Assembly (NCBI GenBank): GCA_964347475.1
Contig: CAYFYY010000014.1
Location: 547 to 64,546, forward strand
Reading direction: 5' to 3'
DNA from: an uncultured Flavobacteriales bacterium
GTDB taxonomy: Bacteria; Pseudomonadota; Alphaproteobacteria; UBA8366; JADFVY01
Length of the DNA: 64,000 nucleotides
The notes under the pieces were generated by a model that had not been told where the DNA came from, ran no database searches, and saw only the letters and a program-made list of their open reading frames with translations. The position numbers and the translations under genes are program-made. Positions 4,130 through 35,019 of the stretch are shown here, in pieces; the stretch's first letter is position 1, and every line of letters begins with the position of its first letter.

Positions 4130-4332
4130 CGCAGGATCCTCCTGATCGGGCGGCGCGAATTGTTTATCTATAGTCGAAAGGTGGCCAGCCGCAAGCTGAG
4201 CCGCAGGGCTGCAATCGGCATCAGCACCGTACGGGCAGAGCCGTTGGCGGATCACTGCCCTTGCCGACCAAGCCCGAACGGGGCAAGCTCTCTTGCGACA
4301 GGTCGAAATCGTCGAACGCCGGGAGGGCCGCC

Positions 4333-5962
<1,630 letters not shown>

Positions 5963-5966
5963 TCGG

Positions 5967-6434
5967 TTGGCCAGCTATTCCTATGATCTTTTCGCCGATT
6001 ATGTTCAGTTCTACCTGCAGGACGGGCAGGCCGAGGGTAATCTCGCGGATGCCTGGACTGAGGAGGCAGTCGCAAACCTACTAGCGGTTGCACCTCGCAC
6101 AATTGGCGTAGGGACCGTTCGCAATACGGATGTACCGGTCACGATTGAGGTCTGTGACGCGGAGCCGACGACGGATTTGACACCATGGGATCACGTCATG
6201 GAGTGCGATATCGACATTCCCTCGGGCCGGCTCGTTGTGGCGGGCTGTACCGAATACTTTCCCGATGCAGAACGCATCACCCTTGAGCCAGGACACTATC
6301 GGGCACGAATTCTCTATGGAGCTCTCGACAATCTGAGCGAAGACGGCCGTGATGGGGACGATCACTACAGCGTTTATTTTTGGAAAGCGGCCGCTGCAGG
6401 GGTCCGAGTAGTCAAGCGGCGGCAACATGACTGA
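5967..6434 (+). CDS. hypothetical protein, ComJ/Nin-like (nuclease-inhibitor/immunity-like fold suspected)
   Basis: TTG start 8 nt after GGAGGAG. 155 aa. Pattern [16 protein letters not shown]...WTEEAV...[12 protein letters not shown] parallels B. subtilis ComJ/Nin as I recall it. GC is about 57% by hand count versus over 70% in the flanks. Its stop overlaps the hutH start (ATGACTGA). Confidence 0.55.
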
Positions 6435-9754: not shown

Positions 9755-9909
9755 CTGCCGTGGGCCGGCCGTAATCCGCCCCTCATCGTATTGCGACGGG
9801 TCGCCGCCTTCCCGAATGTCGGTTCCGGTGTTTTAATCCCGGCACGGGGCGGCTAGGCTCATCGGGAGCGGCCGCCCGGCCGGTAATCATGTTGTTCCCG
9901 GGAGATGCC

Positions 9910-10536
9910 ATGAGCGAACCGTCGCCGCGCCTCGAAGCCGCCTTCGCCGCCTTCGACGAGGCCAACGCCGCCGATCCGAATACGGTCGAAGCCGACGGTC
10001 GGGAGTGGCCGAAGGAACTGGTCTACGCGCGACAGATGACGCGGTGGCTGGCGCGCTTCGCCCCGGACGCCTCGGAGGCCCTGCAGCTCGCCGCGCGCTG
10101 CCAGCACATACGGCGCTGGGAGATCCCGCGCGATGCCTATCCGCGCGACCGGGTCGGGTACCTGAAATGGCGCACCGAGCTGAAGCACATGCATGCCCGC
10201 ATCGCCGGAGAGATCCTGCAACGGGCCGGCTATGACGACGCGATAATCGCCCGCGTCCAGTCGCTGCTGAAGAAGGAGCGCCTGAAGAGCGATCCGGAGG
10301 CCCAGACGCTGGAGGACGTAGTCTGCCTCGTCTTCCTCGAAAACTGGTTCGCCGAGTTCTCGCAGCAGCACGCGCCGGACAAGGTGGTCGACATCGTCGC
10401 CAAGACCTGGAAGAAGATGTCGCCGGCCGGCCATCGAGCGGCACTCGACCTAACAGTCGTCCTGCCCGACGACGCGCGGGCACTGGTCGAGCGCGCCCTG
10501 GCCGCGGGCCAACCCGCCGCGCCGCAACCACGATGA
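9910..10536 (+). CDS. DUF4202 domain protein
   Basis: ARCQHIRRWEIPRDAYPRDRVGYLKWR...LEDVVCLVFLE is the DUF4202 core. ATG at 9910. Confidence 0.75.
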   Translation: MSEPSPRLEAAFAAFDEANAADPNTVEADGREWPKELVYARQMTRWLARFAPDASEALQLAARCQHIRRWEIPRDAYPRDRVGYLKWRTELKHMHARIAGEILQRAGYDDAIIARVQSLLKKERLKSDPEAQTLEDVVCLVFLENWFAEFSQQHAPDKVVDIVAKTWKKMSPAGHRAALDLTVVLPDDARALVERALAAGQPAAPQPR

Positions 10537-26558: not shown

Positions 26559-28235
26559 ATGACCGCAACGCCGGGACACGAGACCCACGAGGTCTTCAAC
26601 CAGTCGCCGCCCCTGGCCGACCACAACGTCTTCGAGACCGACCGCTGCCTCGCCGCGGCGGTCGAGCGCGAAGGGGCCGCCTGGGCGCGCGACGACCTCG
26701 TGCGGCTGGGCGCCGTGGCCGGGGCTGCCGAGACCCAGCACCAGGCCCGGCTCGCACATGCGGTCCCGCCGGTGCTGCATACGCACGATGCCGCCGGCAA
26801 CCGCATCGATGCGGTCGAATTCCACCCGGCCTGGCATGCGCTGATGGCGGCCGGCATGGCGGCCGGCGTGCATTCGCTGGCATGGACCGACGCGCGGCCC
26901 GGCGCCCACGTCGCCCGCGCCGCCCTCGCCTTCGTGATGAACCAGGCCGAGAACGGCGTGTGCTGCCCGCTCGCGATGACCTTCGCCGCGGTGCCGGCGC
27001 TGCGCCGCCAGACGGACGTGGCCGAGACCTGGGTGCCGCGCGTCACCGGCCGCGACTACGACGGGCGGCCCATCCCGGCGGAGGACAAGACGGCGTGCAC
27101 CATGGGCATGGCGATGACCGAGAAGCAGGGCGGCTCGGACGTCCGCGCCAACACGACGACGGCGGCACCGGCCGGCAAGGCGGGCGGCCCCGGCGCCGCG
27201 TATCTCCTGACCGGCCACAAGTGGTTCTGCTCGGCGCCGATGTCGGATGCGTTCCTGACGCTGGCGCAGGCGCCCGACGGGCTGAGCTGCTTCCTGGTGC
27301 CGCGCTTCCGCCCGGACGGCACCCGCAATGCGTTCCTCATCCAGCGCCTGAAGGACAAGCTGGGCAACCGTTCCAATGCGTCGGCCGAGATCGAGTATCG
27401 CGGCACCTGGGGCCGCATGGTCGGCGAGGAGGGCCGTGGCGTCGCGACGATCCTCGAGATGGTGCAGCACACGCGGCTCGACGCCGCGGTCTCGGCGGCG
27501 GCGATCATGCGCCAGGCGGTCGGCCTTGCGATCCACCATTGCGACCACCGCTCGGCGTTCCAGCGCCGCCTGATCGACCAGCCGCTGATGCGCGCCGTGC
27601 TCGCCGACCTGGTGCTCGACTCGACGGCGGCGACGCTGCTGGTCATGCGCCTGGCCGGCGCCTTCGACCGCGGCCATGGCGGTGATGCGGGCGAGGCCGC
27701 GCTGGCGCGTCTCGGCGCCGCGGTGGTCAAGTACTGGGTGTGCAAGCGCACCCCGCCGGCCGTCTTCGAGGCGCTCGAATGCCACGGCGGCAACGGCTAC
27801 GTCGAGGAGTCGGTGGTCGCCCGGCTGTACCGCGAGGCCCCGGTCAACAGCGTTTGGGAGGGGTCCGGCAACGTGATCTGCCTCGATGCACTGCGCGCCA
27901 TCGAGCGCGAGCCCGACTCGCTCGAGTCGCTTCGTGCCGACATCGCCAAGGCGAAGGGCGCAGACCCCCGATTCGATGCCTTCGTCGCCGGACTCGAGTT
28001 GCTGCTGGCCGACCGCACGGGGCTCGAGCCGCGGGCCCGGGACCTGACCGGCCGGCTCGCGCTGGCCCAGGCCGCTTCGCTGCTGCTGCGGCACGCCCCG
28101 GCCGCCCTTGCCGGCGCGTTCTGCGCCAGCCGCCTGGGCGACGACGCAACCTTCAGCGCCCAGGCTTACGGCGCGCTGCCGCCGGATGCGGCGGTGCAGG
28201 ACATCATCGCCTACGGGCGGATCGCGTCCGACTGA
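26559..28235 (+). CDS. acyl-CoA dehydrogenase family protein, AidB-like
   Basis: 558 aa. N-terminal HEVFNQSPPL..., then MTEKQGGSDV and ECHGGNGYVEES. Confidence 0.88.
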   Translation: MTATPGHETHEVFNQSPPLADHNVFETDRCLAAAVEREGAAWARDDLVRLGAVAGAAETQHQARLAHAVPPVLHTHDAAGNRIDAVEFHPAWHALMAAGMAAGVHSLAWTDARPGAHVARAALAFVMNQAENGVCCPLAMTFAAVPALRRQTDVAETWVPRVTGRDYDGRPIPAEDKTACTMGMAMTEKQGGSDVRANTTTAAPAGKAGGPGAAYLLTGHKWFCSAPMSDAFLTLAQAPDGLSCFLVPRFRPDGTRNAFLIQRLKDKLGNRSNASAEIEYRGTWGRMVGEEGRGVATILEMVQHTRLDAAVSAAAIMRQAVGLAIHHCDHRSAFQRRLIDQPLMRAVLADLVLDSTAATLLVMRLAGAFDRGHGGDAGEAALARLGAAVVKYWVCKRTPPAVFEALECHGGNGYVEESVVARLYREAPVNSVWEGSGNVICLDALRAIEREPDSLESLRADIAKAKGADPRFDAFVAGLELLLADRTGLEPRARDLTGRLALAQAASLLLRHAPAALAGAFCASRLGDDATFSAQAYGALPPDAAVQDIIAYGRIASD

Positions 28236-28398
28236 CCGGACCGTGGGTCGTCTGCCGTTGCAACCCAAAGGCGAGAGTCGGCCCTTGGCGCCGCACGCGT
28301 CGCCCATCAAATATTAATGAGTACTAATATAATAAGGGGCCGGATACTTGGCGTCTACATGGCCGTCCATGAATAGGGCAAGGGAAGCGATCCCGGAA

Positions 28399-28412
28399 TT
28401 TGACATAGATCA
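28399..28412. promoter_or_regulatory. near-consensus FNR/FixK box
   Basis: TTGAC-ATAG-ATCAA (9/10 to TTGAT-N4-ATCAA). A TGGTTAATT -10-like element starts 22-25 nt downstream. Confidence 0.5.
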
Positions 28413-28828
28413 ATTTTCCCCAGCCTCAAACGCTGGTTAATTATTCGGTAAGAATTATAAGCGTACGCATGAACAGCCCCGGTTATCGGGGGCGCACGAC
28501 CAGATTCCGCCACTGCCTCGGCCCCGACATGCAGGTAGACGTGACCGCAACGAATTGTTGTAACCGGCGATTGCCGGTGAGCGCGAGCGCGCCCGCGGGG
28601 CCGTCCGGACGACGGCCCGCGCGCCGCTGGTGCCGGTCCGGCATGCGGAAAGGGTCGGCGCCCGTCGTGGCATATTGCCACGGGGCGAATCGCTCAAGCC
28701 GCCGCGACGTCGAACCAATTCACCGAATTTTCCATGACTTTGTTGGCGTTGCATTCGGGAAATTGGTTCGGGTTGCAGAAGTGCGGAAGAAATGTCGATC
28801 AATTGTCGCGATCGGCAGACAGCAAAAA

Positions 28829-28842
28829 TTGATCTACCTCAT
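28829..28842. promoter_or_regulatory. weaker FNR/FixK-like half-conserved box
   Basis: TTGAT-CTAC-CTCAT (TTGA-N6-TCAt). Confidence 0.2.
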
Positions 28843-28973
28843 ATTTCGTGTGGTTTTTGTCGGCTACAGACGAAGTCATATTCTTTATTCCGTTTTCGAC
28901 CTGGTATTGCACGTAAAGGTTTGCGCCATGCCGACTGGGCCTGCGGAATTTCTTCGGTCTGGCAGCAGTGCCG

Positions 28974-28994
28974 GATCCGGTCCCGGACCGGATC
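28974..28994. promoter_or_regulatory. 21-bp palindrome about 120 nt upstream of the decahaem gene
   Basis: GATCCGGTC-CCG-GACCGGATC, perfect 9-bp arms. Confidence 0.3.
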
Positions 28995-29112
28995 GGGGCG
29001 CCCCCGCGCAACACAGCGATCGGAAACATCCCGATTTCATCAAAGATGAGACGAACCAGTGGCCGGCGCCCCCGGCTGCCCGTGTTAGCAACCCCAACTT
29101 GGAGACGTTCAC

Positions 29113-30069
29113 ATGACCGGTCCAGCAAGGTTCTTGACTGCAGCGGTTGCGGCAATGCTGCCGCTTGCCGCGCTGCTGTCTGCAGGAAGCGTCCAGGCGC
29201 AGGAGGGCACCGCGGCCCAACCGGTGCAACTGGCCCAGGCCGCGACCGTGGGCTCCGAGGTCTGCCTCGAATGCCATGACGAGGCGCCGACCAACCTCAT
29301 TCTGCGCACGCCGCACGCCCAGACGGCGGACAGCCGCACCCCGTTCGCGCGCGGCGGCTGCGAGACCTGCCACGGCCCGGGCGGCAACCACGCCGACAAC
29401 CCGAGCGTGCCGATCGGCGTCAAGTTCGGGGCCGGGTCCGAGACCACGGCGTCGGCGCAGAACGAGGTCTGCCTGACCTGCCACCAGGGCGGCAAGCGCA
29501 TCAACTGGCAGATGAGCCAGCACGCCTCGGCCGACCGGACCTGCGCGTCGTGCCACAACGTGCACTCGAAGAAGGACAGGATGCTCGTCAAGGCGAAGCA
29601 GGCCGACGTCTGCTTCGGCTGCCACAGGGAGCAGAGGGCGCAGTCGCTGAAGCGCTCCCACCATCCGATCCAGGAAGGCAAGGTGGTGTGCTCCGACTGC
29701 CACAACCCGCACGGCTCCTTCGGGCCGAGCCAGCTGAAGAAGAACAGCGTCAACGAGACCTGCTTCCAGTGCCATGCGGAAAAACGCGGCCCGTTCCTGT
29801 GGGAGCATGCGCCGGTCGTCGACAACTGCGCGAACTGCCACGTGCCGCACGGCTCGTCGCAGCCGCGGATGCTGAAGGTGCGTACGCCCATGCTGTGTCA
29901 GCAGTGCCACACCGAAGGATTCCATCCGAGCACGGCGTACGGCGCGCAACATCTGCCGCCGAACGCGCTTTCGAACAGCTCGTCGCGGATCCTGGCCAAG
30001 GGATGCTTGAACTGCCACCCGGCGATCCACGGCACAAACCATCCATCCGGCCCGCGGCTGACCCGCTAG
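29113..30069 (+). CDS. periplasmic decahaem c-type cytochrome, MtrA/DmsE/PioA/MtoA family
   Basis: 318 aa with a signal peptide. Exactly ten CXXCH motifs: CLECH, CETCH, CLTCH, CASCH, CFGCH, CSDCH, CFQCH, CANCH, CQQCH, CLNCH. Confidence 0.93.
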   Translation: MTGPARFLTAAVAAMLPLAALLSAGSVQAQEGTAAQPVQLAQAATVGSEVCLECHDEAPTNLILRTPHAQTADSRTPFARGGCETCHGPGGNHADNPSVPIGVKFGAGSETTASAQNEVCLTCHQGGKRINWQMSQHASADRTCASCHNVHSKKDRMLVKAKQADVCFGCHREQRAQSLKRSHHPIQEGKVVCSDCHNPHGSFGPSQLKKNSVNETCFQCHAEKRGPFLWEHAPVVDNCANCHVPHGSSQPRMLKVRTPMLCQQCHTEGFHPSTAYGAQHLPPNALSNSSSRILAKGCLNCHPAIHGTNHPSGPRLTR

Positions 30070-30121
30070 CGCCACTCGATTCACGGTTTTCCATTCGCGC
30101 TTCGCGATAGGAGGTAAGGTT

Positions 30122-32359
30122 ATGAAGAGCAGCAAATCGAAGTTCCTGCTGGTGTCGCTCGCGCTCAGCACATGGCCGATGAGCGCCATGGCGCAGCAGG
30201 CGTCACCGGTCACCGCCAGCGGCGAGGTCGAGGTGGGAATCGGCTGGGTCACCGAAGACTCGTTTGAATTCGGGAAATTCACGGGCCTCGAGGAGAGCGG
30301 AGCATACTTCGTCGGCAATATTGAGTACCTGAGGCGTTCGCCATACGATGGCGACAGCACGACCTATTTCGAGCTTCAGGGAAACAATCTCGGGCTCGAT
30401 TCGCGATCCGTATACGTGGAGGGTGGCAGACAGGGCCGCTTCAGCGTCTACGGCGAATACGACGCGATCCCCCATCTGCGCTTCGACGACGGGCAAACGC
30501 CGTATTCGGGCGCCGGCAGCACCAATCTGAGCCTCCCGCCCGGATGGGTGCCGGGCGGCGATACTTCGGGACTGACAAATCTAACGGCCAGTCTTCGGGG
30601 TCTCGAAATCGAGACCGAACGGGAGCGCATCGGCGCCGGATTTTCGTTCATTGTCAATCCGAGCTGGACGCTTTCGACCGCGTTCCGGAGCGAGGAGAAG
30701 ACGGGCATCGACACGATCGCCGGTATCTTCGGGTCGACCGGCGGCAACATGCGCTCTGCAGTCCTGCCAAGGCCGGTCGATTACACCACCCACCAGGCCG
30801 AGATGGCTGTCGGCTACAGCACCGACCGGCTGCAGGCGGATATCCGCTACAACCTGTCGCTGTTCGACAACAACAAGAACTCGCTGACCTGGGACAATCC
30901 CTACACCGCGAACGCGGCATGGGACCCGAGTCAGGACTTCAACAACGGCGGCCAGGGACGCATGGCGCTCGAGCCCAACAACAGTGCCCACAATCTCAGT
31001 GTCTCGCTCGGCTACATGTTGGGCGAGCAGACCCGGCTTGCGGGCACCCTTTCGCTTGGCCGCATGATTCAGGATGACGATTTCCTGCCGTACACGGTCA
31101 ACCCGAACCTGACGGACTCGACCGGACTCAATCCGCCGTTGCCCCTGCCCCGGAGCAGTCTCGACGGCGAAGTCAACACCATCCATGCGACCCTCGGCGT
31201 GACCACCAGGCTGACGCAGAACGCAGACCTGAAGGCGGCCTACACGTATGACAATCGGGACAACCAGACGCCGGTCGACACGTTTCTGACGATCCCGAAC
31301 GACTCGATCGATCAGGGTACGACCGCGGACGCCAGGGCACGGCGCAACAGGCCGTACAGCGTCCAGACCCACAAGGTGGAGCTGGAAGCGGGGTATCGTC
31401 TGACGGAGGATACCAAGCTGACCGCGGAGTACGAATTCGAGGCGGTCAACCGCGACCTGCAGGAGGTGGATGACACCACCGAGCACACCTTGGGCGCCAA
31501 GGTCCGCTCGTCGCTCACGCAGACATTGAGCGGCTCGTTTTCCTATGCCTTCTCGACGCGGAGCGGCTCGACCTATGATACCACGCTGCCGTACCTCGTG
31601 AGCCACGACCCTGACTATCTCACCAACACGGCCACATTGCCGGACGACGCCTACGAGCAGAACCCCTATCTGCGGAAATACTATATGGCCGACCGGCAGC
31701 AGCATTTCATCAAAGGCGGCCTGACCTACTTCCCGAGCGACCGGCTGGTGCTGGGCCTGAACGGCTCCTACAGGCTGGCCAACTATGACGACAGCGTCCT
31801 GGGCCTCACGGATTCGAGCTACGGAAGCGCGACGATCGACGCGAGCTACACTGCGTCGAGAAGTGTCGCCCTGTCCGGTTTCCTCACCTATGACATGATG
31901 GAAAGCGTACAGGTGGGATGGCAGCGCCCGGGATTCGTCACGATTCTGCCCACCACCCCGGTGGACACTGCCTCCCTGTGGGAGGAGACGATCACCGACC
32001 AGGGCATTACGGCCGGGTTCGAGGTCGCGTGGTCCGCGATCGAGGACTCGCTCGATATCGTGCTCGACTACGCTTACTCCAATATCGAAACCGAGTTCAA
32101 GTTCGCGACGAGTCTCGCCGGTGTCCTGCCGCCGCCGGACCTTACGTCGGAGCTGCATTCGGTCGGTATTCGCGGCGACTACCAACTGAGGGAGGGGTTG
32201 ACCGTCCGCCTCGGCTACCGGTACGAGACGCTCGAGGTCGAGGACTTCGCCCTCGATAACGTCGACGAGGTGATCGCGCCGGCCGTGTTCGCGCTCGGCA
32301 ATGCGAGCCCGGAGTACGACGCGCACGTCGTCGCCGGCTCGCTGATAGTCAACTTCTGA
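30122..32359 (+). CDS. MtrB/PioB family decahaem-associated outer-membrane beta-barrel
   Basis: 745 aa. Signal peptide ...MSAMAQQ. N-terminal GEVEVGIGWVTEDSFEFGKFTGLEESG... and C-terminal ...AGSLIVNF, typical of this porin family. Directly downstream of the decahaem gene. Confidence 0.88.
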   Translation: MKSSKSKFLLVSLALSTWPMSAMAQQASPVTASGEVEVGIGWVTEDSFEFGKFTGLEESGAYFVGNIEYLRRSPYDGDSTTYFELQGNNLGLDSRSVYVEGGRQGRFSVYGEYDAIPHLRFDDGQTPYSGAGSTNLSLPPGWVPGGDTSGLTNLTASLRGLEIETERERIGAGFSFIVNPSWTLSTAFRSEEKTGIDTIAGIFGSTGGNMRSAVLPRPVDYTTHQAEMAVGYSTDRLQADIRYNLSLFDNNKNSLTWDNPYTANAAWDPSQDFNNGGQGRMALEPNNSAHNLSVSLGYMLGEQTRLAGTLSLGRMIQDDDFLPYTVNPNLTDSTGLNPPLPLPRSSLDGEVNTIHATLGVTTRLTQNADLKAAYTYDNRDNQTPVDTFLTIPNDSIDQGTTADARARRNRPYSVQTHKVELEAGYRLTEDTKLTAEYEFEAVNRDLQEVDDTTEHTLGAKVRSSLTQTLSGSFSYAFSTRSGSTYDTTLPYLVSHDPDYLTNTATLPDDAYEQNPYLRKYYMADRQQHFIKGGLTYFPSDRLVLGLNGSYRLANYDDSVLGLTDSSYGSATIDASYTASRSVALSGFLTYDMMESVQVGWQRPGFVTILPTTPVDTASLWEETITDQGITAGFEVAWSAIEDSLDIVLDYAYSNIETEFKFATSLAGVLPPPDLTSELHSVGIRGDYQLREGLTVRLGYRYETLEVEDFALDNVDEVIAPAVFALGNASPEYDAHVVAGSLIVNF

Positions 32360-32427
32360 CCGCCAGGTCCGGTCCACAACACGGCCCCGCCGGGGGGTAC
32401 AGCCCGGAACACAAGAGCCTCCTCACT

Positions 32428-32456
32428 GGCGCCGCCCCCGATCAAGGGGCGGCGCC
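32428..32456 (+). terminator. 11-bp GC hairpin between the porin gene and cydA
   Basis: GGCGCCGCCCC-CGATCAA-GGGGCGGCGCC. No clear U tract. Confidence 0.5.
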
Positions 32457-32521
32457 GCTCCATTGCGCCCGACCGGCCCGAAGCGCCGCCGCAGGGCCGC
32501 CCGCTCCGGCGATGCCGGGGG

Positions 32522-32585: not shown

Positions 32586-34025
32586 ATGGACGGGTTCGCG
32601 GCGATCGGCGCCGAATTGCCGGCGCGCCTGCAGTTCGCCTTCACCGTCTCGTTCCATATCGTCTTCCCCGCCTTCAGCATCGGGCTGGCGAGCTACCTTG
32701 CGGTGCTCGAGGGGCTGTGGCTGCTCACCCGCCAGCAGGTCTTTCACGACACCTATCGATACTGGCTGAAGATCTTCGCCGTCACCTTCGGCATGGGCGT
32801 CGTCTCCGGCCTCGTCATGAGCTACCAGTTCGGCACCAACTGGAGCGTCTTTTCCGACCGGACGGGGCCGGTCCTCGGGCCGCTGATGGGCTACGAGGTG
32901 ATGTCGGCCTTCTTCCTCGAGGCCGGCTTCCTCGGCATCATGCTGTTCGGCGAGAAGCGTGTCGGCCGCGCCCTGCACTTCGCCGCGACGGTCATCGTCG
33001 CCGCCGGAACGCTGGCCTCGGCGTTCTGGATCCTCAGCGTCAACAGCTGGATGCACACGCCGGCGGGCTACGCGGTGAACGCGGCCGGCCAGTTCGTGCC
33101 GGACGACTGGTGGGCGATCGTCTTCAACCCGTCGTTTCCGTATCGGCTCGTCCACATGGTGCTGGCCTGCTACCTGACCACCGCCTTCGTCGTCGGCGCG
33201 GTCGGCGCCTGGCACCTGATGCGCGACGCCGGCAACCAGCCGGCCCGCCTGATGTTCTCGATGGCGATGTGGATGGCGCTGCTGGTGGCGCCGCTGCAGA
33301 TCGTCGCCGGCGACCTGCACGGCCTCAACACGCTGCGCCATCAGCCGGCCAAGATCGCGGCTATGGAGGGCCATTTCGAAACGCAGGAGGGCGCGCCGCT
33401 GATCCTGTTCGGCCTGCCCGACATGGAAGAGGAGCGCACCCGCTATGCCGTCTCGGTGCCGAAGCTCGGCTCGCTGATCCTCACCCACGACTGGGACGGC
33501 GAGGTGCGCGGCCTCAAATCCTGGCCGCCGGAGGACCGGCCGAATGCCCCGATCCTGTTCTGGAGCTTCCGCATCATGGTCGGACTCGGCGTCCTGATGG
33601 CGCTGCTCGGGGCGTGGTCGCTGCTGCGCCGGCTGCAGGGACGGCTCTACTACGACCGGCGGCTGAAATGTTTCGCCGTCGCGATGGCGCCGTCCGGCTT
33701 CGTCGCCCTGCTCGCCGGCTGGATCACCACCGAGGTCGGGCGCCAGCCCTATACGGTGTACGGGCTGCTGCGCACCGCCGACTCGCTCTCCCCGGTCGGC
33801 GGCATCGCGGTGTCGGCCTCGCTGCTCGGCTTCGTCGTCGTCTATCTGATCGTGTTCGGCGCCGGCGTGTTCTACCTCTTGCGGCTGATGGCGCGCCGGC
33901 CGGAGCCGGGCGTCGAGGATCACGCCGAGCTGGGCCCGGTGCGGGCCGCCGGGATCCTGCCCGGCCTCCTGATGGGCGGCGGCGCCGGCGATGCGCGGAC
34001 GGAGGGCCCCGGCCATGGAACTTGA
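32586..34025 (+). CDS. cydA: cytochrome bd-type ubiquinol oxidase subunit I (short Q-loop, CioA-like)
   Basis: 479 aa. FHIVFPAFSIGL..., GYEVMSAFFLEAGFLGIMLFG, PAKIAAMEGHFETQ. Confidence 0.93.
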   Translation: MDGFAAIGAELPARLQFAFTVSFHIVFPAFSIGLASYLAVLEGLWLLTRQQVFHDTYRYWLKIFAVTFGMGVVSGLVMSYQFGTNWSVFSDRTGPVLGPLMGYEVMSAFFLEAGFLGIMLFGEKRVGRALHFAATVIVAAGTLASAFWILSVNSWMHTPAGYAVNAAGQFVPDDWWAIVFNPSFPYRLVHMVLACYLTTAFVVGAVGAWHLMRDAGNQPARLMFSMAMWMALLVAPLQIVAGDLHGLNTLRHQPAKIAAMEGHFETQEGAPLILFGLPDMEEERTRYAVSVPKLGSLILTHDWDGEVRGLKSWPPEDRPNAPILFWSFRIMVGLGVLMALLGAWSLLRRLQGRLYYDRRLKCFAVAMAPSGFVALLAGWITTEVGRQPYTVYGLLRTADSLSPVGGIAVSASLLGFVVVYLIVFGAGVFYLLRLMARRPEPGVEDHAELGPVRAAGILPGLLMGGGAGDARTEGPGHGT

Positions 34026-35019
34026 CCTTGCCCTCGTCTGGGCGCTGATCCTCGCCTTCGCGGTGTTCGCCTATGTGGTGATGGACGGCTTCGACCTCGG
34101 CATCGGCATCCTGTACCCGCTGCTCCGCGGGCAGCGCGACCGCGACACCGCGATGAACTCGGTCGCGCCGGTGTGGGACGGCAACGAGACCTGGCTCGTG
34201 CTCGGCGGCGGCGGGCTGATGGCCGCGTTCCCGCTGGCCTACGCGATCCTGATGCCGGCCCTGTACGCGCCGATCATCGTCATGCTGGTCGCCCTCATCT
34301 TCCGCGGCGTCGCCTTCGAGTTCCGCTGGCGCACGGTGCGCGCCAAGCACCTGTGGAGCCTTTCGTTCTTCGGCGGCTCCGTTATCGCGGCGCTGTGCCA
34401 GGGCATCGCGCTCGGCGCCATCGTCCAGGGCATCGCGGTTTCGGGCCGCGCCTACGCCGGCGGCTGGTGGGACTGGCTGACCCCGTTCAGCGTGATGACC
34501 GGCGTCGCCCTCGTCGTCGGCTACGCGCTGCTCGGGGCGACCTGGCTGATCATGAAGGCGACGGGCGAGCTCAAGGCGACGGCGACGCGCCTCGCCTGGA
34601 TCTCCGGCGCCGGCACGGTGGCGCTGATCGGCGTCGTCAGCCTGTGGACGCCGCTGCTCAACCCTTCGTTCTGGGAGCGTTGGTTCAACTGGCCGGCGAC
34701 CGCCTATACCGTCTTCGTGCCGCTGCTGGTCGCCGCCTGCATCGCCCTGCTCGTCCGCGGCCTGCGGCGCGGCGACGACGCATCGCCGTTCCTCGCCAGC
34801 CTCGGGCTGTTCCTGTTGTCCTATATCGGGCTTGCGATCAGCCTGTATCCCGACATCGTGCCGCCGGACGTGTCGATCTGGCGCGCCGCCGCGCCGGACG
34901 ACAGCCTCGCCTTCCTCTTGGTCGGCGCCGTCGTCCTCATCCCGCTGATCCTTGCCTACACGGCCTATTCCTATTGGGTGTTCCGCGGCAAGACCGACCC
35001 GCATGCGGGCTATCACTGA
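34015..35019 (+). CDS. cydB: cytochrome bd-type ubiquinol oxidase subunit II
   Basis: 334 aa from MELDLALVWALILAFAVFAYVVMDGFDLGIGIL. Overlaps the cydA end by 11 nt. Confidence 0.92.
   Translation: MELDLALVWALILAFAVFAYVVMDGFDLGIGILYPLLRGQRDRDTAMNSVAPVWDGNETWLVLGGGGLMAAFPLAYAILMPALYAPIIVMLVALIFRGVAFEFRWRTVRAKHLWSLSFFGGSVIAALCQGIALGAIVQGIAVSGRAYAGGWWDWLTPFSVMTGVALVVGYALLGATWLIMKATGELKATATRLAWISGAGTVALIGVVSLWTPLLNPSFWERWFNWPATAYTVFVPLLVAACIALLVRGLRRGDDASPFLASLGLFLLSYIGLAISLYPDIVPPDVSIWRAAAPDDSLAFLLVGAVVLIPLILAYTAYSYWVFRGKTDPHAGYH

Follow-up and report, generated by a model that had tools for sequence, protein, structure and literature searches.

A predicted MtrAB/PioAB-family porin-cytochrome gene pair, preceded by FNR/FixK-type boxes, in an uncultured alphaproteobacterium from marine sediment

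MtrAB-type conduits are the main known route by which electrons cross the Gram-negative outer membrane, and they drive the cycling of iron and manganese in sediments. Here we analyze one such locus, a decahaem cytochrome gene followed by an outer-membrane barrel gene, which lies in a 64,000-nucleotide (64-kb) stretch of contig CAYFYY010000014.1; this whole stretch is called the window throughout. Three described systems come closest to it. The MtrCAB complex of Shewanella (6R2Q) is the best match in both structure and sequence, since all ten haem motifs and their distal histidines are kept and the 26-stranded barrel superimposes with a TM score of 0.88, but the window contains no mtrC/omcA gene and its barrel has no N-terminal CXXC. 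PioAB(C) of Rhodopseudomonas palustris TIE-1, which serves phototrophic Fe(II) oxidation and electron uptake, is likewise alphaproteobacterial and MtrC-less, and pioABC expression is FixK-dependent, with two FixK-type TTGA-N6-TCAA boxes in a class II arrangement and transcription beginning 177 nt before the ATG (PMC3050613). On the other hand, PioA carries a long N-terminal extension and pioC encodes a high-potential iron-sulphur protein (HiPIP), whereas the window has neither; the pioABC box lies about 220 nt from the ATG, whereas in the window the canonical box lies 713 nt and a one-mismatch box 284 nt away. No photosynthesis genes were seen in the window. MtoAB of Sideroxydans lithotrophicus ES-1 and Gallionella, which acts in chemolithotrophic Fe(II) oxidation, resembles the locus in its MtrA-sized decahaem cytochrome, MtrB-type barrel, lack of MtrC, A-then-B gene order and proposed low-oxygen working. 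Compared by cluster description, however, Mto includes the monohaem gene mtoD and a cymA/mtoC tetrahaem gene (PMC8805035, PMC10654088), neither of which is in the window, and its host is a betaproteobacterial lithoautotroph whereas ours is a heterotroph-like alphaproteobacterium from marine sediment.

We conclude that the pair probably forms a functional two-gene operon encoding a porin-cytochrome conduit of the MtrAB/MtoAB/PioAB family, of a predicted subtype that operates with no outer MtrC. The family is well known and the pair an ordinary member of it, both of its proteins are already named by standard annotation pipelines in related metagenome-assembled genomes (MAGs), and neither its partner-less state nor its FixK box is exceptional within that family. 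The locus adds an uncultured marine alphaproteobacterial lineage to the conduit family, and the by-products of the comparison are more useful than the locus itself: FNR/FixK boxes appear to be a family-wide promoter feature rather than a peculiarity of pioABC, an N-terminal CXXC in the barrel appears to predict an MtrC partner well beyond the Gammaproteobacteria, and conduit cassettes seem to be exchanged within conserved flanks. These by-products leave the long-standing question of how direction is set unanswered.

The first gene, mtrA (29113-30069, + strand), encodes a 318-aa periplasmic decahaem c-type cytochrome of the MtrA/MtoA type. On re-counting we found exactly ten CXXCH motifs, as the preliminary description of this DNA had stated, at residues 51, 83, 120, 144, 167, 193, 217, 239, 262 and 298, together with 20 Cys and 23 His in all and no CX3-4CH variant motif in the protein. 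A six-frame translation of the 64 kb yielded a CXXCH string at just two other places, neither of them in the frame of a gene (the first is antisense within mtrB, the second opposite a short-chain dehydrogenase gene), and the cluster of ten is therefore far beyond chance. The decahaem DmsE/MtrA profile TIGR03508 scored 304.3 bits against a cut-off of 192.2 and was matched over its entire length (positions 1-258 of 258) by residues 47-312. Since this match covers nearly the whole protein, and the 46 residues preceding it amount to a signal peptide and a short linker only, the cytochrome appears to have no N-terminal extension of the PioA type, which bears out its earlier assignment to the MtrA/MtoA size class. 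Aligned with chain A of 6R2Q (276 bits), each haem motif and each distal histidine of MtrA found its counterpart, which indicates at the level of sequence that the ten bis-His haem sites seen in the solved MtrA are all kept. A plausible Sec signal peptide was read by eye at residues 1-29, and a ribosome-binding site, GGAGA, stands at 29101-29105.

The second gene, mtrB (30122-32359, + strand), follows on the same strand after a gap that we confirmed to be 52 nt and that contains an AGGAGG ribosome-binding site. It encodes a 745-aa, cysteine-free outer-membrane barrel of the MtrB/MtoB/PioB type, with a signal peptide at residues 1-24 and a C-terminal Phe, both read by eye. TIGR03509 (MtrB/PioB) scored 500 bits against a cut-off of 240.05 over profile positions 1-661 of 662, PF11854 (MtrB_PioB) scored 533 bits, and chain B of 6R2Q was matched in sequence with 205 bits; chains A and B of this structure, the Mtr complex of Shewanella baltica, were the only significant solved-structure matches of the pair. 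An AlphaFold2 model of the barrel, built with 25 homologues, had a predicted local distance difference test score (pLDDT) of 76.6, a predicted TM score (pTM) of 0.70 and 26 strands of at least 8 residues. In a Foldseek search with this model the top hit was again 6R2Q_B (E 5.6e-47), the runners-up being 22-strand TonB-dependent receptors with TM scores of about 0.4. Thus both sequence and fold agree with the family assignment first proposed for the pair. Our comparison set consists of 80 related loci taken from GTDB species genomes (L003-L082; 81 barrels with that of the window), and nearly all of them keep the same A-then-B order, L017 being the one clear exception. Both genes are intact and under purifying selection. 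The ratio of nonsynonymous to synonymous substitution (dN/dS), taken against L003, a relative 96% identical, was 0.079 for mtrA and 0.141 for mtrB, in the same range as the 0.12-0.15 of the flanking aidB, cydA and cydB, and for this reason we regard the pair as maintained by selection.

Is the barrel of a kind that docks an outer cytochrome? Wee and colleagues (2014; cited in PMC12175506) reportedly described a CXXC near the N-terminus of MtrB as the signature by which metal-reducing Gammaproteobacteria are marked. We scored the motif C-K-[YF]-C at N-terminal residues about 35-55 of the 81 barrels, where it co-occurs with an MtrC-type gene. At about residue 40 it was present in 18 of the 23 MtrC-bearing loci as compared with 11 of the 58 others (Fisher p 1e-6), and most of these 11 either stand on contigs that end just upstream of mtrA or are clade-mates of MtrC-bearing loci. 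Since CXXC tracks with MtrC and the barrel of the window has no cysteine at all, the comparison supports the view that no MtrC would dock on it. The link between CXXC and MtrC was also seen in MAGs labelled as other phyla (Methylomirabilis, Nitrospiraceae and Bacteroidota among them).

The preliminary description had called the pair partner-less. Within the window this is true: we found no other haem-c open reading frame (ORF), whether of MtrC/OmcA, MtoD or CymA/MtoC type, a six-frame scan of the 64 kb with the PROSITE pattern for HiPIP gave no match, and apart from cydAB no redox carrier is encoded there, the remaining genes belonging by Pfam to ordinary metabolism and transport. The implication that such a state is unusual did not hold, as in 10 of the 80 loci of the comparison set the A-B pair likewise stands alone, with 3 kb or more of flanking sequence available on either side. 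In a neighbour-joining tree of the 81 barrels the window groups with L003 and L004, both bare, and the sister of this group is L005, which has directly upstream of mtrA a CymA-like tetrahaem gene of the NapC/NirT family (PF03264) and a gene for a monohaem protein of about 330 aa with an EB_dh domain (PF09459). Among loci with partner genes, clusters of this tetrahaem-EB_dh-mtrA-mtrB kind (L005, L082, L015 and L023, from uncultured Alpha- and Gammaproteobacteria) have the barrels closest to that of the window on the tree, and they differ from the window in that the two genes stand where the window has a gene-less spacer of 877 nt. Because the sister locus still has both genes upstream, the bare state of the window looks like a derived loss or relocation of the tetrahaem and EB_dh genes. 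In the wider super-clade of the window barrel L041 is the single MtrC-bearing locus; the other MtrC-bearing clusters lie elsewhere, most of them in one large separate clade.

The same data bring up the idea of a stranded remnant: the cassette would have outlived its usefulness after losing the CymA-like and EB_dh partners, as the long gene-less spacer and the upstream genes of L005 and several other relatives might suggest. We consider this very improbable: the ORFs are intact with every haem ligand conserved, dN/dS (0.08 and 0.14) is no different from that of the flanking genes, the promoter elements have been kept, and the bare state persists in L003 and L004 at barrel identities of 96% and 63%. 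Nor does the spacer hold any trace of decayed partner genes. When 236 cytochrome ORFs of the related loci were run against it by tblastn the best E value was about 0.02, and a decayed partner gene was rejected; tblastx of the spacer against L011, L019 and L004 returned DNA-level islands only.

The EB_dh monohaem gene may be noted in its own right. In many MtrC-less clusters the gene immediately before mtrA encodes a protein of about 320-350 aa with one CXXCH and the EB_dh domain (coordinates in L005, 1370-2407; L082, 8012-8965; L009, 7983-8969; L063, 7925-8926), often with the NapC/NirT tetrahaem gene ahead of it, and similar ORFs occur in L015, L016, L023, L046, L065, L068-L071 and L074. We found no description of it as a partner of mtrA in the literature searched.

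The upstream region of the pair was described at the outset as a FixK-boxed leader, and comparison makes this box credible. The distal FNR/FixK-type box, TTGACATAGATCAA (28400-28413, + strand), lies 713 nt upstream of the mtrA ATG, and no other TTGA-N6-TCAA occurs in the 64 kb. L003 has the same box sequence, and the core, TGACATAGATCAA, or a one-mismatch variant, is found in L011, L004, L019 and L008. Upstream of mtrA in all five loci the core is followed about 22-23 nt downstream by ATTAATTATTYGGTAA (by a variant of it in L019), so the box with its -10-like block is common to six alphaproteobacterial lineages. In the window this conserved block, TTAATTATTCGGTAAG (28437-28452, + strand), may contain the -10 region of a class II promoter and its transcription start; it forms an island of identity in the otherwise about 57% identical spacer of L011 and is also seen in L004 and, as a variant, in L019. 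The spacing from box to block is compatible with a predicted box centre near -41.5, like that of the pioABC promoter. Furthermore, among 63 analysable loci, 22 of 49 TTGA-N6-TCAA boxes fell within 400 nt upstream of the first cytochrome gene, a zone that makes up 2.3% of the sequence, which amounts to a 34-fold enrichment (Poisson p 4e-26); each of eight control palindromes (seven composition-matched ones and the CRP-type TGTGA-N6-TCACA) occurred there 0 or 1 times. Boxed upstream zones were seen in L005, L015, L021-L024, L033, L034, L037, L038, L041, L043, L046, L047, L054, L061 and L081. The conserved box stands at -208 in L019 and at -281 in L008, and the group of the window adds about 500 nt to this distance.

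A proximal FNR/FixK-like box with one mismatch, TTGATCTACCTCAT (28829-28842, + strand), lies at -284, where 24 nt (28825-28848) repeat the region of the distal box in inverted orientation; its counterpart in L004, TTGATCCAGATCAT, is at -348. The two arms of the inverted repeat (28394-28417 and 28825-28848) are 83% complementary and flank 407 nt, and each holds one FNR/FixK-like box. This arrangement is most simply taken as two binding sites; its geometry resembles that of an invertible segment, and no recombinase gene was found near it.

If transcription starts near 28448, the non-coding 5' leader (28453-29100, + strand) would be about 660 nt long. Its predicted structure is moderate (fold z-score -2.8), the leader and the gaps gave no match to Rfam at E values up to 1, and two conserved DNA islands were located in it at 28524-28536 and 28903-28913. 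A 215-aa ORF in the spacer (28469-29116), which is annotated as a gene on the public contig, was rejected as spurious, having no Pfam match and no protein-level conservation and failing the gene filter based on G+C at third codon positions (GC3). The leader also contains a GC-rich palindrome, CCGGATCCGGTCC/GGACCGGATCGGG (28971-28997), of which the window holds no other copy at up to 3 mismatches.

Taken with the solved complex, these features suggest how the locus may work. By homology to 6R2Q the cytochrome would be threaded through the barrel to form an insulated haem wire across the outer membrane, its ten haems bridging the periplasm and the cell surface. The comparison of upstream regions points to transcription of the pair from the conserved FNR/FixK-type class II promoter, so that it would be induced at low oxygen; the transcript would have an unusually long leader and end at a conserved GC-rich hairpin, with cydAB as a separate neighbouring unit. 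Electrons from soluble or surface Fe(II), or from another external reductant, would pass inward, as they do in PioAB and MtoAB, and be taken over by periplasmic carriers whose genes lie elsewhere in the genome. We weakly prefer this inward flow, giving it an even chance or slightly better, because the barrel is CXXC-less, the locus lies in a nearly MtrC-less clade and PioAB offers a precedent for FixK control.

A number of points weigh against this reading. Low oxygen favours both the stability of Fe(II) and the need for alternative acceptors, and low-oxygen induction fits the outward disposal of electrons as well as it fits Fe(II) uptake. The enriched boxes precede MtrC-bearing and MtrC-less clusters alike. 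The lone box in 64 kb is not significant by itself, as 20% of shuffled sequences have at least one, and at -713 it lies far beyond the -18 to -354 of the other loci and the about -220 of pioABC. No periplasmic or inner-membrane partner is encoded in the 64-kb window. The barrel tree is a neighbour-joining tree without support values and leaves aside the experimentally studied MtoB, PioB and Shewanella MtrB. Finally, Baker et al. found no function-specific clades in their trees, and MtrCAB can run in reverse (PMC8805035).

The opposite direction therefore has to be taken seriously. An oxygen-limited heterotroph might use the bare MtrAB wire to pass respiratory electrons outward, with Fe(III) in soluble or chelated form, Mn(III/IV), humics or external shuttles as acceptors; we rate this as a strong rival, though less probable than inward flow. 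FNR/FixK-type induction is the classic switch to alternative electron acceptors, the boxes that stand before MtrC-bearing clusters belong to presumably reductive systems, the surrounding genes are heterotrophic, with neither carbon fixation nor lithotrophy represented among those seen in the 64 kb, the source sediment is rich in metal oxides (PMC8319310), and according to the literature direction is not inferable (PMC8805035). What lowers its probability is that the window has no surface cytochrome of the MtrC/OmcA type, that the CXXC-less barrel type goes with MtrC-less clusters in the 81-locus set, and that there is no CymA-type quinol dehydrogenase near the pair to feed the wire. The direction of flow cannot be read from the sequence, given that published trees lack function-specific clades (PMC8805035) and boxes precede both cluster types; on the same two grounds the microoxic electron-uptake module proposed in the preliminary description is not derivable.

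Downstream of mtrB lies a GC-rich, terminator-like stem-loop (32428-32456, + strand) with an 11-bp stem of -29.6 kcal/mol and no T tract, which a consensus terminator scan does not call as it has no T run. It is kept in L003 and L011, and in L012 it shows compensatory changes (GGCGCCGCTTCCC/GGGAGGCGGCGCC). Beyond it, on the same strand, cydA starts 226 nt after mtrB; cydAB (32586-35019, the two genes overlapping by 35 nt) encodes a short-form bd oxidase with a CydA of 479 aa and a CydB of 342 aa. If mtrAB and cydAB were one microoxic uptake unit, electrons from external Fe(II) would reach the quinone pool and then the high-affinity bd oxidase, a plausible sink at low oxygen. The short distance on one strand, the recurrence of this adjacency in L003, L011 and L012 (the only related loci where it is found), and the lack upstream of cydA of an FNR-like box (at up to 2 mismatches) or, by consensus scan, of a sigma-70-type promoter would all agree with such a unit. 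However, cydAB belongs to a conserved backbone, LysR-EamA-methyltransferase-ADH-(AidB)...CydAB. In L004 cydAB stands on this backbone with no adjoining mtrAB, which is found about 7 kb upstream of it and about 2 kb upstream of LysR, and in L019 mtrAB occupies the slot after ADH while cydAB is absent within 10 kb downstream. The two pairs are set apart by the conserved hairpin and by a sharp cassette boundary ahead of cydA, and bd oxidases use quinol, and no quinone-reducing cytochrome of CymA/MtoC type is present in the window to bridge them. A joint unit is thus unlikely. We conclude that mtrAB is probably a bicistronic unit and cydAB its backbone neighbour; functional coupling is possible, but it is not supported, because cydAB lies on the conserved backbone and a conserved hairpin follows mtrB. 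A further GC-rich palindrome, GGCCCCGCCGGGGGG, is located after mtrB at 32383-32397.

The boundary before cydA was seen in the sliding nucleotide identity between the window and L011, which was 77-96% in aidB (88-96% over most of it), about 57% in the spacer, 85-94% in part of mtrA (29161-29460) and 69-79% in the rest, 47-68% (mostly 50-60%) in mtrB, and again 91-95% in cydA. The proteins follow suit, with identities of 89% for AidB, 73% for MtrA, 38% for MtrB and 93% for CydA. The divergent span covers about 28230-32520 of the window and 1207-5578 of L011, and is also seen against L012, L019 and L004. The barrels of L011, L012 and L019 fall in a different clade from that of the window while occupying the same syntenic slot, and G+C is 0.62-0.64 over 28-32 kb against 0.69-0.72 in the flanks. 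Such a sharply bounded, divergent cassette with a mosaic mtrA in conserved flanks appears to fit the mobility and insertion "scars" of mtrCAB described by Baker et al. (PMC8805035). Carriage on a plasmid was rejected, the sole weak match being one of 21.7% identity on a 2.1-Mb Photobacterium replicon. More speculatively, and with a low probability in our estimate, the slot between aidB and cydAB might be a swappable conduit cassette, in which a bare FixK-driven pair with no dedicated periplasmic partner would deliver Fe(II) electrons through general carriers to the bd oxidase at low oxygen. In close relatives whose flanks are 88-96% identical in nucleotides the barrels are just 36-38% identical in protein and mtrA is mosaic; if the idea were true, it would imply that an electron conduit exposed at the cell surface is replaced by recombination or is under diversifying selection.

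The host is an uncultured Rhodospirillales-like alphaproteobacterium from marine sediment. The same genes are also present on contig JABAOH010079180.1 of GCA_012974985.1, a pooled metagenome from one-metre marine sediment cores of the Gulf of Cambay and the Arabian Sea (PMC8319310). A drinking-water sand filter as the place of origin, suggested by the 'Mix_sand' names of MAGs, was rejected, since tracing the accession led to these marine cores. At species level the closest genomes are without exception MAGs, carrying the labels Alphaproteobacteria, Rhodospirillaceae or Rhodospirillales, and no cultured organism is among the best 120 relatives of MtrA, all of which are at least 50% identical to it. 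Heterotroph genes in the window comprise a histidine-utilisation (hut) cluster and genes for short-chain dehydrogenases, TctABC transporters, an acyl-CoA dehydrogenase, UbiD, a thiamine-diphosphate enzyme and regulators of the LysR and MarR families. The window protein 9889-10536 is not on record, and Pfam scans covered this part of the window. Compared with JABAOH010079180.1, the window shows an indel, its coordinate offset shifting by 109 nt on the way from mtrB to 50.5 kb, and extends about 4.4 kb past the end of that contig; it therefore comes from a different, though closely related, assembly. In the hut cluster the urocanase ORF (4261-6084) encodes 607 aa, its Urocanase_C match stops at profile position 56 of 196, and a high-GC3 ORF (5495-5962) overlaps it, which may reflect a frameshift in hutU or an assembly error.

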